The notes under the pieces: generated by a model
Database searches by the model: none
What the model was told of the DNA's origin: nothing
Seen by the model: the letters and a program-made list of their open reading frames with translations, nothing else
Virus record (IMG/VR): IMGVR_UViG_2703718791_000006
Location: 1-7,301 of that record
Reading direction: 5' to 3' (one strand)
Length of the DNA: 7,301 nt
DNA from: a virus
Lineage: Duplodnaviria; Heunggongvirae; Uroviricota; Caudoviricetes
Part shown: positions 2,883 to 7,301 of the stretch, piece after piece
Layout of the letters: every line of letters begins with the position of its first letter
Position numbering within the stretch: position 1 is the first letter of the stretch
Translations under genes and position numbers: made by a program

Positions 2883-2895
2883 TTTTTTGTAAAAG

Positions 2896-3124
2896 CCCTC
2901 TACCCCATCTACCTGAATGAAATAAACGCATATTATTCAACATGATAAGTGGGTAGAGGGCTAGGTAGAAGGCTAATAAAAGCTCTCTACCTCTTCTACC
3001 TGATTTTATCAGTTTCAGGTAGCAGGGTAGACGGCAGGTAGAGGAGCCCAAAAAGCTATCTACCCGCTGAAAGCCGCGCCATTACTGACATGATGAGCAT
3101 TCGGGTAGATGGGTAGAGGGGGGG
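2896..3124. repeat. iteron array, candidate satellite replication origin
   Basis: Twelve copies of GGTAGA or its complement TCTACC, often inside a longer GGGTAGAGG core. Top strand GGTAGA at 2952, 2964, 3026, 3037, 3104, 3112 and GGTAGC at 3018; TCTACC at 2899, 2908, 2986, 2995, 3059. Copies occur in pairs or triplets 9-12 bp apart, in alternating orientation blocks, with AT-rich stretches at 2915-2950 and 3125-3160. Sits between the helicase and the ssb operon. Confidence 0.6.
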
Positions 3125-4124: not shown

Positions 4125-4331
4125 ATGGCAGAAGAGAAAAAAGGCGGTGTTTCGGTGTACATAAGCCCCGAAATCGTGGAGGTGCTCAAGCAGCGCCACA
4201 AAAAAAACTATGAGGCTGGCGTAGCGGCTGGACTGGATCCGCTGATGACGCCGGAGCCGTCGATAGGTTCACTTGTGCGCTCTTATTTACTTGCGGCGCT
4301 TGGGATGCATAAAAATTATGGGGGTGAATAA
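4125..4331 (+). CDS. hypothetical small protein, 68 aa; possible ribbon-helix-helix DNA-binding protein
   Basis: N-terminal GGVSVYISPEIVEVLKQ fits a beta-strand plus helix pattern as in Arc/CopG-type RHH proteins, and a second helix SIGSLVRSYLLAALG follows. Stop TAA 4329-4331 overlaps the capsid ATG (TAATG). The fold assignment is a guess from sequence pattern only. Confidence 0.5.
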   Translation: MAEEKKGGVSVYISPEIVEVLKQRHKKNYEAGVAAGLDPLMTPEPSIGSLVRSYLLAALGMHKNYGGE

Positions 4332-5386
4332 TGGCAGGCAAAGCAACGGCACTTAACACTAACCAGCTTTTTGCGTACCTGAATCGCGGGGATATTGCGG
4401 AATTTAAATTTAGTCCGCTGTTTACCACGCTGTTTTTCCCGAAAGTAGCGACATTCAACACCCAAAACATCATGCTGGATAACCTGGACACCGAAGAAGT
4501 CACTATGTCAGCGTTTTGCTCGCCTATGGTTGGTAGCCAGGTACAGCGCGATAAAGGGTACGAAACCAGCACGATTAAACCTGGCTACATGAAGCCAAAG
4601 CACGAAATCGATCCAACAAAAACCATCATGCGCATGGCTGGAGAAGATCCGGCACAGCTTAACGACCCAACCTATCGCCGTATGCGCCTGATTACTGGCA
4701 ACATGCGCCGCCAGGTAAACGCTATTAAAGCGCGTGTTGAATGGCTGGCGGTAAATGCGGTAACGACCGGAAAAAACATCATTGAGGGCGAAGGCATAGA
4801 GCGCTATGAAATCGACTGGAAGATACCGGAAAAAAACATCATAGAGCAGGCCGACGGGAAAAAATGGTCAGAGCAGGACAAAGAAACCCACGATCCAATC
4901 TATGATATCGAACTATACGCCGATCAGGCTGGTTGCCCCGCAAACGTCATGATTATGGGCGCTGAGGTATGGCGAACGTTACGCAGCTTTAAAAAATTCC
5001 GTGAGCTGTACGATCTTTCCCGTGGTTCAGAGTCCGCCGCAGAGCTGGCCTGTAAAAACCTGGGCGAAGTGGTGAGCTTTAAAGGCTATCTGGGCGATAT
5101 TGCCCTTATCGTCTATTCCGGCAAATACGCCGACAGCGACGGCACCGAAAAACATTTCCTTGAGCCTGATTTGCTGGTCTTGGGCAACACCAACAATAAA
5201 GGGCTGGTTGCTTATGGTGCGATTATGGATCAGGAAGCGGTAAGAACGGGCGCAACGCAAAACATGTACTACCCGAAAAACTGGATTGAGGACGGCGATC
5301 CGGCGATTGAGTACGTGCAGACGCACAGCGCACCGCAGCCGGTGCCGGCAGACATTCGCAAATTTGTTACCGTCAAAATTGGTTAA
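4331..5386 (+). CDS. major capsid protein, lambda gpE family (HK97 fold)
   Basis: 351 aa, colinear over its full length with lambda gpE (341 aa) as recalled. Conserved blocks: FKFSPLF versus FKFDPLF; PGYMKPKHEIDP versus PGYVKPKHEVNP; DPTYRRMRLITGNMR versus DPAYRRRRIIMQNMR; RGSESAAELACKNLGEVVSFKGYLGDIALIVYSGKY versus RGSNSELETAVKDLGKAVSYKGMYGDVAIVVYSGQY; YPKNWIEDGDPAIEY versus YPKNWVTTGDPAREF. SD GGGGTGA upstream. Confidence 0.9.
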   Translation: MAGKATALNTNQLFAYLNRGDIAEFKFSPLFTTLFFPKVATFNTQNIMLDNLDTEEVTMSAFCSPMVGSQVQRDKGYETSTIKPGYMKPKHEIDPTKTIMRMAGEDPAQLNDPTYRRMRLITGNMRRQVNAIKARVEWLAVNAVTTGKNIIEGEGIERYEIDWKIPEKNIIEQADGKKWSEQDKETHDPIYDIELYADQAGCPANVMIMGAEVWRTLRSFKKFRELYDLSRGSESAAELACKNLGEVVSFKGYLGDIALIVYSGKYADSDGTEKHFLEPDLLVLGNTNNKGLVAYGAIMDQEAVRTGATQNMYYPKNWIEDGDPAIEYVQTHSAPQPVPADIRKFVTVKIG

Positions 5387-5397
5387 CGGGGGATTCT

Positions 5398-5733
5398 ATG
5401 AACACTCCATACATTGAGTTATTTGCAGGCAGTCAGCAGGTATCCACGACGCTGGTACATTTTGCCGCTGATGCTGGCGTCATTCAGGAATTTACCCCGC
5501 TGATGCTGGCGGACAATGGCGAGTTTAAGCCGTGGGATGGTCAGGCGTCCGGAAAGGCTGTTTATCTGACTTCGTACCCCGTGGACACGTCAAAGCAGAA
5601 ATCAGCACAGTGCTACAAGACGGGGATCTTTAATATCGCCGCCGTGAACTGGCCCGAGAGCGTCGACACCGATGCGAAAAAATGCGCCGCCTTTGCGGGT
5701 TCTGGCGTATCCGTTCAGCCGCTGGCCCGATAA
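5398..5733 (+). CDS. head decoration protein, lambda gpD family
   Basis: 111 aa versus gpD 110 aa. Shared blocks: TPLMLAD / TPLMLD, WDG, YKTGIFN..WPE / YKSGTF..WPE, KKCAAFAGSG / KKRTAFAGT. SD GGGGGAT upstream. Gene order is capsid then decoration, the reverse of lambda's D then E. Confidence 0.8.
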   Translation: MNTPYIELFAGSQQVSTTLVHFAADAGVIQEFTPLMLADNGEFKPWDGQASGKAVYLTSYPVDTSKQKSAQCYKTGIFNIAAVNWPESVDTDAKKCAAFAGSGVSVQPLAR

Positions 5734-6188: not shown

Positions 6189-6265
6189 ACGGGTCCTTTC
6201 CGGCATATGGACCCGTTACGGGGCGGCGACCTCGCGGTTTTTCGCTATTTATGACGTTTTTCCGT
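6187..6265 (+). other. lambda-type cos site, copy 1 (cosQ, cosN, I2-like proximal cosB)
   Basis: TTTACGGGTCCTTTCCGG (6187-6204) matches the lambda right-end cosQ region. GGGCGGCGACCT (6221-6232) is identical to the lambda 12-nt cohesive end, and the 17-bp spacing between them is kept. The following CGCGGTTTTTCGCTATTTATGA closely matches the lambda left end CGCGGGTTTTCGCTATTTATGA. No ATGTCCGGTT-type repeats before the terS start. Confidence 0.75.
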
Positions 6266-6269
6266 GAAG

Positions 6270-6296
6270 GTGACACCACCACCACTTGATTAATAT
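6270..6296 (+). promoter_or_regulatory. weak candidate promoter for the small terminase gene
   Basis: GTGACA (6270-6275), about 15-bp spacer, TAATAT (6291-6296). The alternative TTGATT (6286-6291) has a poor -10. Low confidence. Confidence 0.25.
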
Positions 6297-6321
6297 TTAA
6301 CCATGTAGTTAAGGTAACATT

Positions 6322-6756
6322 ATGATTGATAAAGCTTGTTTTGTAAGTCAGCAGGAAATAGCTGAACATTTCAAGGTTAACAGAACCACTATTCGCGCAT
6401 GGACCAAACAGGGGATGCCGTATCTTAATGCGGATCGCGGAAAGTCCGGCGGTTATCACATCGGGCATACATTGCTTTGGTCTTCAGGTAAAAGCCATCT
6501 TGAGGCCATTGGATATCACGTAGAAACCAGTGCGCTGGAAAAAATTATGTTTGCCAGGCTGCTTTCATCTGAGCGTGACGAGTACTCCAGTGAAGAAACA
6601 GAACATCGATTTGATGAAGGTTTGCAGATTTACGGATATTCACCGGAAGATGTGAGCAAGGCACGAAATAAAATGGCTGGCTTTCTGGCTGGGTGGCGTC
6701 ATGCCGTAAGCGTTCGCCGTGCCAGCATGGAGCAATCAGCCGATACAGAACAGTAA
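6322..6756 (+). CDS. small terminase-like protein, phage Nu1 family (N-terminal winged-HTH DNA-binding domain)
   Basis: 144 aa. N-terminus SQQEIAEHFKVNRTTIRAWTKQGMPYL parallels lambda Nu1 KKQLADIFGASIRTIQNWQEQGMPVL. It is shorter than Nu1 (181 aa) and diverges after the HTH. It sits about 90 bp downstream of the cos copy 1 cohesive end, where lambda has Nu1. Confidence 0.75.
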   Translation: MIDKACFVSQQEIAEHFKVNRTTIRAWTKQGMPYLNADRGKSGGYHIGHTLLWSSGKSHLEAIGYHVETSALEKIMFARLLSSERDEYSSEETEHRFDEGLQIYGYSPEDVSKARNKMAGFLAGWRHAVSVRRASMEQSADTEQ

Positions 6757-6824
6757 AGCCGATAACTTGTTAATCACTCGCAGCAATGCATGTGATTTGT
6801 GCACACTTTCGGTTAACTGGTTCG

Positions 6825-6921
6825 ATGTCCGGTTTTAGTGTCTGTTTTTTGCGCATGTCCGGTTCATGGAAAGCATGTTTTTATATTTTTCATATGGTTA
6901 ACTTGCAGAGAAACCGGACAT
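6825..6921. repeat. three 10-bp ATGTCCGGTT repeats in a cosB-like R-I-R-R layout (candidate small-terminase binding sites)
   Basis: ATGTCCGGTT at 6825-6834 and 6855-6864 on the top strand and inverted (AACCGGACAT) at 6912-6921, with an AT-rich stretch (about 6876-6896) between the direct pair and the inverted copy. GGTTAACT also recurs at 6810 and 6895. Lies between the terS stop and the inverted cohesive-end sequence. Confidence 0.5.
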
Positions 6922-6924
6922 GGA

Positions 6925-7003
6925 TCCCGAAAAATTTTCATAAATAGTGAAAACGCGCGAGGTCGCCGCCCCGTAACGGGCCATAATTCCAGGAAGGACC
7001 CGA
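6925..7003 (-). other. second lambda-type cos site, inverted (cosQ-like, cosN, I2-like)
   Basis: Bottom strand reads CGGGTCCTTCCTGG..CGTTACG-GGGCGGCGACCT-CGCGCGTTTTCACTATTTATGAAAATTTTT. The cohesive-end 12-mer occupies 6960-6971 on the minus strand. 6956-6980 is a perfect 25-bp inverted repeat of 6212-6236, with imperfect similarity continuing on both sides. The cosQ-like element differs from lambda at a few positions. Confidence 0.65.
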
Positions 7004-7035
7004 CGACACCAGGCTATCAGAACGATGGGGGCACA

Positions 7036-7301
7036 ATGACAGAAGCCGAACTACTGCGATTAATCCGCCGCGTTACCGGAATCAGCCAGCAGCATGACGA
7101 ACAGGGCACGCAACCGGACAGCGTGACCGCTGAAAATTATGCGCGTGTTGTTGCTGAGGTGATGCGCCGTGATGGTATTGAGCTTAACGGCGTGGATATG
7201 CGCAACATACGAACCAGAGTCCTTGAGTTGCTGGCATACCGTCGCCGCGTGGAGATGTATCGGGAGAAGGAGAAAATCACGTACCACTGGAAGAAGCCGG
7301 A
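7036..7301 (+). CDS. 5' part of an ORF running off the right edge; product unknown
   Basis: ATG 7036 preceded by GATGGGGG, open in frame 1 to the window end (MTEAELLRLIRRVTGISQQHDEQ...). Not in the ORF track because it has no stop in window. No match to the lambda gpA N-terminus; resemblance to the lambda FI N-terminus is too weak to call. Confidence 0.45.
   Translation, partial: MTEAELLRLIRRVTGISQQHDEQGTQPDSVTAENYARVVAEVMRRDGIELNGVDMRNIRTRVLELLAYRRRVEMYREKEKITYHWKKP

Follow-up and report, generated by a model that had tools for sequence, protein, structure and literature searches.

Why do some phage-inducible chromosomal islands (PICIs) carry two different cos sites? The question was put in the original papers on these elements, including Fillol-Salom et al. 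2019 (PMC6739421), in which no phage cosB was recognisable in the island. The locus examined here raises it again in a concrete form: a short array of repeats lies beside one of the two cos sites, and the identity of the protein that this array would serve bears on why the second site is there at all.

The stretch of DNA that was analysed (7301 bp, hereafter the window) is EcCICFT073, the model Gram-negative PICI. The 891 bases around the array are 99% identical to positions 1,387,487-1,388,377 of E. coli CFT073, in which the annotated gene order is integrase, AlpA-type regulator, primase, SSB, gpE-like capsid protein, gpD-like decoration protein and phoQ. The ORF that ends next to the array encodes RppA: the N-terminus of its 144-aa product is identical to that of the published protein, including R21 and T22, and the protein is a homologue of RppC (PDB 6HLK, E=4e-32). 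The rppA gene is flanked by two lambda-like cos copies in inverted orientation, cos1 and cos2, such that the cosQ-cosN-I2 block at 6925-7002 is an inverted repeat of 6190-6267 (78 nt, 81%); the cosN of cos2 reads GGGCGGCGACCT on the minus strand. The cos2 of EcCICFT073 was printed in Fig S1A of Fillol-Salom et al. 2019 (PMC6739421) and corresponds to the reverse complement of ~6800-7020, so that the repeat array is the cosB side of the published cos2. The site itself and its basic cos activity are already known. The features discussed below are collected in Table 1.

Table 1. The two cos sites of the island, the repeat array within cos2, the adjoining genes and the cos region of a resident prophage. 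Positions are those of the window unless another source is named.
Feature	Position	Strand	Remarks
cos1	6190-6285	+	cosQ 6191-6197; cosN 6221-6232; Rpp-type recognition motif GACACCACCACCAC 6272-6285
rppA (c1503), 144 aa	6322-6756	+	Nu1-like protein of the sequence-only reading; convergent with cos2
PICI-specific rest of the cos2 cassette	6757-6824	-	between the last repeat and the stop codon of rppA
cos2 module	6825-7003	-	cosQ 6995-7001; cosN 6960-6971; I2-like 6930-6942; cosB 6825-6921
R1-position copy, R2 orientation	6825-6834	+	bp 138-147; PICI/phage homology stops right after it
R2-equivalent, inverted relative to R3	6855-6864	+	bp 108-117; AACCGGACAT in cos2 orientation
AT-rich spacer with I1-like IHF site	6865-6911	-	core TAACCATATGAAA at 6888-6900, that is, bp 72-84; adjoining A/T tract
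R3-equivalent ATGTCCGGTT (extended CCATGTCCGGTTTCTCT)	6912-6921	-	bp 51-60 from the cos2 cohesive end
Conserved 93-aa ORF (C_RS07030 in CFT073)	7036-7301	+	adjoins cosQ of cos2; runs past the window end
CFT073 prophage 2, cos and TerS	L112:20040-20190 and 20229-20738		NC_004431.1 ~1,348,540-1,349,237

The array is built from the 10-mer ATGTCCGGTT, which is present in three exact copies, with 0 mismatches, these being its only occurrences in the window. The starts of the direct pair are separated by 30 bp, and the inverted copy is parted from this pair by a 47-bp spacer with an A+T content of 70%, compared to 50% for the window. Exact search and the A+T count therefore confirm the triplet, its single inverted copy, the AT-rich spacer and the 30-bp interval that had been noticed by the sequence-only reading. 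The order given there relative to cos2 (cosN, I2-like, R, AT-rich, R, R) is likewise correct when measured from the cos2 nick, along which the elements follow as cosN, I2, R3, the AT-rich I1-like block, R2 and R1. The repeats extend beyond the 10-mer, with 17-nt arms (6819-6835 and 6911-6927) that are 88% complementary. When the window was simulated 500 times under a first-order Markov model, no 10-mer of any sequence appeared three times, on either strand, within 130 bp.

This arrangement resembles that of the lambda cosB, which is bound by gpNu1 (TerS) and IHF and in which the repeats likewise lie to the right of cosN and I2. The R3-equivalent occupies bp 51-60, compared to bp 49-64 in lambda and bp 48-60 in N15, and the R3-R2 spacing is ~57 bp (~61 bp in lambda), with an AT-rich, putatively IHF-type block in between, R2 inverted and a third copy after it. 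The candidate I1 core TAACCATATGAAA is a weak match to the IHF consensus WATCAANNNNTTR (2 mismatches) and, by our own reading of the alignment, would fall within ~1 bp of the register of the lambda I1 (TAACTTAATG, bp 73-82). There are also differences from lambda. The core is ATGTCCGGTT as opposed to CGTTTCC; the third copy has the R2 orientation, 30 bp from R2, whereas the lambda R1 has the R3 orientation; and the phage homologues of the array possess a fourth, overlapping direct copy. These homologues resemble lambda also in having terS directly downstream, a position that in the island is taken by the convergent rppA. Judged by the R3-I1-R2-R1 order in the right register from cosN and by the homology with real phage cos sites described below, the triplet is probably the lambda-type terminase-binding site (cosB) of cos2, as its lambda-like layout had initially been taken to indicate. 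The same homology supports the view that the core, being different from that of lambda, reflects a distinct recognition specificity.

The array has counterparts in numerous phages and prophages. Positions 6825-7003 of the window are 93.3% identical to the cos of phages PhiR12_1, PhiR12_2, PhiR12_2_star, PhiR12_4 and PhiR12_5, and the cosB part (6825-6929) shows ~89% identity to O157:H7 prophages and to the prophages of many other strains, a match being present in 1185 of 5426 complete genomes of E. coli. Both in PhiR12_1 and in EDL933, the lysis genes are followed by cosQ, cosN, I2, the array, a gene for a 169-aa "terminase subunit Nu1" and TerL. We refer to this type of TerS, and to the cosB upstream of it, as class A. 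Among the 80 IMG/VR loci retrieved via the class-A TerS, 77 have cosN followed by the same array. A motif search near cos in related genomes had been suggested as a check on the array, and it was successful, locating the repeats beside cosN in PhiR12, O157 and IMG/VR phages. The homology between the island and the phages extends from cosQ to just past the third repeat, and within these limits the island holds almost exactly a minimal cos. In the phages, the third repeat is overlapped by a fourth copy in direct orientation (AACCGGACATGACCGGTT; ATGACCGGTT), of which the island has a degenerate version only; the island copy thus comes without the fourth repeat and without the terS-proximal part of the phage cos.

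Conservation within the phage cos sites is concentrated in the repeats. Across 19 distinct phage cos sequences, none of the 10 columns of R3 is variable, R2 varies in 2 of 10 (rare single substitutions) and the R1 core CCGGACAT is invariant; in the spacer between R2 and R1, 18 of 20 columns vary. The block CAAGTTAAC(C/T)ATATGAAAAATA(T/A)AAAAA is conserved among the phages as well, and the neighbouring spacer varies. Conserved repeats combined with variable spacers make up the pattern that would be expected of protein-binding sites. In one class-A phage locus from IMG/VR (L081), the R2-R1 interval was lost by crossover between the direct repeats, an event of the type by which, according to Feiss, the simple cosB of N15 may have arisen.

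The candidate partner of the array is the TerS that is encoded directly downstream of it in the phages (WP_000235436.1, 169 aa, beginning VATQTEVARHLSLTDRQLRRLQKLPGAPISNKRGQ). This protein matches the Pfam family Phage_Nu1 over residues 49-150 only, and a PDB search with it returned no sequence relative. Its N-terminus can be aligned to the helix-turn-helix-wing found in lambda Nu1, phage 21 gp1, N15 gp1 and RppA, and its recognition helix, LTDRQLRRLQ, differs from those of all these proteins. A prophage of STEC O121 and, likewise, E. albertii and an Escherichia sp. encode TerS proteins in which the C-terminal half is almost identical to that of class A and the N-terminus is of the N15/Monarch type (ISVQAFDKW), with a tripartite cosB of the GGTTGTTGT type upstream. 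This apparent modular swap, which travels with the cosB class, supports a pairing between the DNA-binding domain and the cosB. In the phage homologues generally, the array is located upstream of terS and co-varies with its DNA-binding domain; in the island, no terS is present downstream. A search of genome contigs with the class-A TerS recovered only 4 loci, two of them cut by IS. Additionally, a class-A and a Monarch-type TerS (L002:2443-2952 and L110:1710-2189) differ only in the N-terminal DNA-binding domain.

The cosB of cos2 is exchanged as a unit among sister islands. A census of IMG/VR and metagenomes identified 34 Rpp loci with an inverted cos2, of which 18 have a class-A cosB at this site, ~14 a Monarch/N15-type tripartite cosB and one a third type; a lambda- or 21-type cosB was found at cos2 in none of the 34. 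At least three classes of cosB are therefore represented under a nearly constant RppA. When variant-A and variant-B PICIs are aligned, the exchanged segment is seen to comprise everything from I2 as far as the stop codon of rppA, and the flank with the 93-aa ORF is identical in the two variants despite the different cosB. A search of the phage collection with the variant-B cosB gave no close match beyond cosN.

Several further observations concern these sister islands. The third cosB type (L129, cos2 near 2153 on the minus strand) combines ACTTCCGGTT, placed in the R3 register, with a single inverted copy and a perfect IHF core, TAACAAATTGATT; the core of its repeat is 2 bases off that of class A. 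The more divergent Rpp islands (L105-L107 and L128-L130) possess cohesive ends unlike those of lambda, and their cos1 and cos2 differ in cosN (e.g., GGGGTACGTGTAC vs GGGGTAGCCATAC), so that the two sites would serve different terminases. In two independent metagenome contigs (L117:1369-2181 and L124:1-668), the segment from cos1 through rppA to cos2 has the opposite orientation with respect to the capsid genes and the 93-aa ORF, which points to inversion via the 78-nt inverted cosQ-cosN-I2 repeats (window 6190-7002).

The helpers that have been used with the island in the searchable published work are lambda, phi80 and phi4 only, none of which has a class-A cosB: the cosB of phi4 (CFT073 prophage 4) is that of phage 21, and those of lambda and phi80 are of the lambda type. 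A match of the array to the known helpers of the island was rejected on these grounds. In the published experiments, cloned cos2 supports plasmid transfer and works with lambda and phi80, at reduced efficiency. Deletion of both cos sites abolishes island transfer and deletion of cos1 lowers it; deletion of cos2 increases transfer by lambda and, slightly, by phi80, cos2 thus being costly when the helper is non-cognate. The papers show that cos2 is a working cos site and that RppA does not act through the cos2 cosB.

CFT073 itself contains a class-A prophage. Prophage 2 (1,328,014-1,372,820) is a complete lambdoid prophage, the right end of which is located ~5 kb from the island integrase gene, and it encodes the identical class-A TerS, WP_000235436.1, behind a more diverged class-A cosB. 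In published work on CFT073, deletion of prophage 4 abolished induction, and deletion of any of the other prophages left transfer unchanged. Given that the deletion of prophage 2 was without effect, this resident prophage is not a sufficient helper under mitomycin C. Among the matches listed, 60 genomes bear the PICI, and in 44 of these a second locus with a class-A cosB is present, compared to 21% of the other genomes, a contrast that is inflated by clonal relatedness and in which the second locus is confirmed as a prophage in CFT073 only.

The reading that we favour, with a probability of roughly 60%, is that cos2 is a swappable cassette that mimics the cosB of a helper and, being a functional cognate cosB, allows Rpp-independent packaging by class-A phages. 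The array would have been copied from the cosB of one class of lambda-like E. coli phages and prophages, namely, PhiR12, many O157:H7 prophages and CFT073 prophage 2. During lytic growth of a class-A helper, a TerS dimer would bind the inverted pair formed by R3 and R2, which an IHF-type bend in the AT-rich block would bring opposite each other, and the bound TerS would anchor TerL at the cosN. Packaging would then run leftwards through rppA and round the concatemer, ending at the next cos2, which would be met in the cosQ-then-cosN order. Lambda-type termination needs this order. Packaging initiated at cos1 would proceed in the opposite direction and would meet cos2 inverted. The cos2 route is expected to need no RppA, with cos1 and RppA serving lambda, phi80 and 21-type helpers, and cos2 serving helper classes with other DNA-binding domains, which would widen the helper range of the island. 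A more general scheme, which we put forward tentatively, at somewhat less than even odds, is that Rpp-type PICIs employ two packaging modes: the cos1/RppA mode would capture TerS of the lambda, 21 and phi80 types, and the cos2 slot would swap in cosB of class A, of the Monarch/N15 type or of the ACTTCCGGTT type, by recombination in cosN-I2, for Rpp-independent packaging in the opposite direction. The combination of ATGTCCGGTT with the 169-aa TerS would then represent a further lambda-like specificity.

The array could also reflect a historical accident, in which case cos2 would be left over from recombination between the island and a class-A prophage and would be kept by chance or by repeated gene conversion, with no benefit. 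Such an origin would fit the finding that deletion of cos2 raises, rather than lowers, transfer by lambda and phi80, as well as the lack of effect of the prophage 2 deletion in CFT073, the end of the PICI copy after the third repeat and the mosaic appearance of PICI and phage alleles (e.g., L086). We nevertheless regard it as unlikely. Nearly all of the 18 class-A PICI loci retain the three 10-mers intact, and the inverted cos2 layout persists in the more divergent Rpp lineages, in which the cosN is different. Furthermore, the captured piece, from cosQ to R1, is almost exactly a minimal functional cos, and the presence of at least three complete cosB types in exactly the same slot looks like repeated replacement by working cassettes, not decay.

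A second possibility is that the cognate cosB, present on the amplified island, acts against the phage by titrating or misdirecting the class-A terminase, with transfer of the island secondary or absent. PICIs are known to interfere with helper packaging (PMC6739421), a cognate cos at high copy would compete with the phage cos, and the co-occurrence of PICIs with class-A cosB loci is compatible with such a decoy. However, if such a complete cosQ-cosN-cosB bound terminase, it would be cut and packaged as well, which makes this explanation hard to tell from packaging through the mimicked cosB, and we assign it a low likelihood.

The sequence-only reading had proposed that the specificity of the repeats is matched to the Nu1-like protein of the satellite, that is, RppA; on this account, the repeats would bind RppA, alone or as RppA-TerS, and cos2 would be an island-specific packaging site. 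RppA does possess a TerS-like winged helix-turn-helix, and the repeats adjoin rppA and differ from the lambda R sites. The published experiments, however, contradict this assignment: in Fillol-Salom et al. 2019 (PMC6739421), the RppA-TerS target is cos1, RppA raises the transfer of cos1 plasmids only, and in the cos1/cos2 cosB swaps (Fig 6A, 6B), a response to RppA is seen with the cosB of cos1 alone. The cos1 motif GACACCACCACCAC, conserved in all PICIs examined and present in every Rpp locus of the census (IMG/VR and metagenomes) that has upstream DNA, occurs in the window only at 6272-6285 and is absent from the cos2 region; neither is the conserved ACCACCACC motif at bp 55-63, typical of the Rpp-dependent cosB, found in cos2. 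Murialdo and Feiss 2022 proposed an R3-PICI at bp 55-63 in cos1 and did not discuss cos2. Absence of the repeats from homologous elements had been named in advance as an observation that would count against the proposal, and this is what we find, in that PICIs with a ~97% identical RppA carry an unrelated tripartite cosB at the position of the array. Conversely, the same array is present in many phages without an rpp gene, which encode a distinct TerS of their own. In view of the swap data, the missing cos1 motif and the replacement of the cassette under a near-constant RppA, RppA was rejected as the partner of the array; the account is largely refuted by the published swap, and we consider it very improbable.

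Least credible of all is a transcriptional element, in which the repeats would act on rppA or the 93-aa ORF as operators, as part of a promoter region or as a terminator. The array does lie between genes, with the rppA stop at 6756 and the start of the ORF at 7036, and its inverted copies can form a weak hairpin (z = -1.7). Positions 6757-7035, however, contain no promoter-like site and a single terminator-like match, with a poor 5-bp stem; the variant-B PICIs share the flanking genes with an unrelated intergenic cassette in between, and the same array in phages sits in the cos region. A small ORF at 6786-6947 that overlaps the array was set aside as well, being absent from the variant-B islands and showing variation that is repeat/spacer-like, not codon-like.

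Beyond lambda, the cos2 array, read as a mimic of a helper cosB, can be compared to several known packaging systems. Phage 21, the cosB type of which is also that of the CFT073 helper prophage 4, has the same architecture, and its R core CATGTCGG resembles CATGTCCGG; it has one extra base in the core, however, the core is ~4 bp nearer cosN, and the flanks and the TerS N-termini differ. The Monarch/N15 specificity (Feiss et al. 2015, PMC4669245) is a non-lambda, non-21 class with a tripartite cosB in prophages. This type occupies the same cos2 slot in sister PICIs and has a TerS whose C-terminal half is shared with class A, but has a different R core, GGTTGTTGT, and a different recognition helix, ISVQAFDKW vs LTDRQLRRLQ; assignment of the array to the N15/Monarch class was rejected because of these differences. 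The cos1/Rpp system resides in the same island, with the same cosQ, cosN and I2, and both sites are packaging initiation sites used with a helper terminase. At cos1, the motif ACCACCACC (bp 55-63) stands alone, without repetition, and RppA is required; cos2 is built with a repeat array of the phage type and shows no response to RppA. A further parallel to cos2 is found in the SaPIbov5-type islands, satellites that are packaged via a copy of the helper cos without a specificity factor of their own. These are Gram-positive elements with an unrelated cos, and in EcCICFT073, the mimic coexists with a factor-dependent cos.

We found no description of the repeat array, of its identity with the cosB of a prophage class or of the cassette exchange at cos2 in the searchable literature, subscription-only publications being outside the scope of the search. 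A full-text search for the 10-mer returned unrelated papers only, and no paper on the PhiR12 phages was found. On the evidence of its sequence, then, the array appears to be a lambda-type cosB of a further specificity that is carried by a satellite, and its match to the cosB of a helper class suggests why the island carries a second packaging site. The cos2 of the island contains the cosB of one very common E. coli prophage class, found in ~1/5 of complete genomes, CFT073 included, as a copy that is intact and conserved. Considering that sister islands have other phage cosB types in the same slot, the question of the two cos sites becomes testable with an available phage, PhiR12. If the favoured reading is true, the host and helper range of these virulence-associated islands would be wider than lambda-type assays indicate, and the helper range could be predictable from the cosB cassette. 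For the general set of terminase-DNA recognition systems, ATGTCCGGTT together with the new TerS DNA-binding domain is a candidate for a further packaging specificity beside those of lambda, 21 and N15.

Three minor features of the window lie outside the cos region. Within the primase gene, positions 2270-2281 (GGGCGGCGACCC) match cosN with 1 mismatch, without a cosQ or I2 context, and this resemblance is probably due to chance. Pfam matches identify the product of the ORF at 4331-5386 as a gpE-like major capsid protein (E=2e-52) and that of the ORF at 5398-5733 as a gpD-like decoration protein (E=6e-18). In the 2018 paper, the island was packaged in full-size helper capsids, and deletion of c1499 or c1500 (locus tags as used in that paper) had no transfer phenotype. 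Finally, iteron-like repeats are located at 2890-3113, just 3' of the primase gene (1134-2882); they include two 27-nt direct copies 87 bp apart and inverted repeats at 2904-2919/3098-3113 and 2894-2905/2951-2962, and are probably the replication origin of the island.
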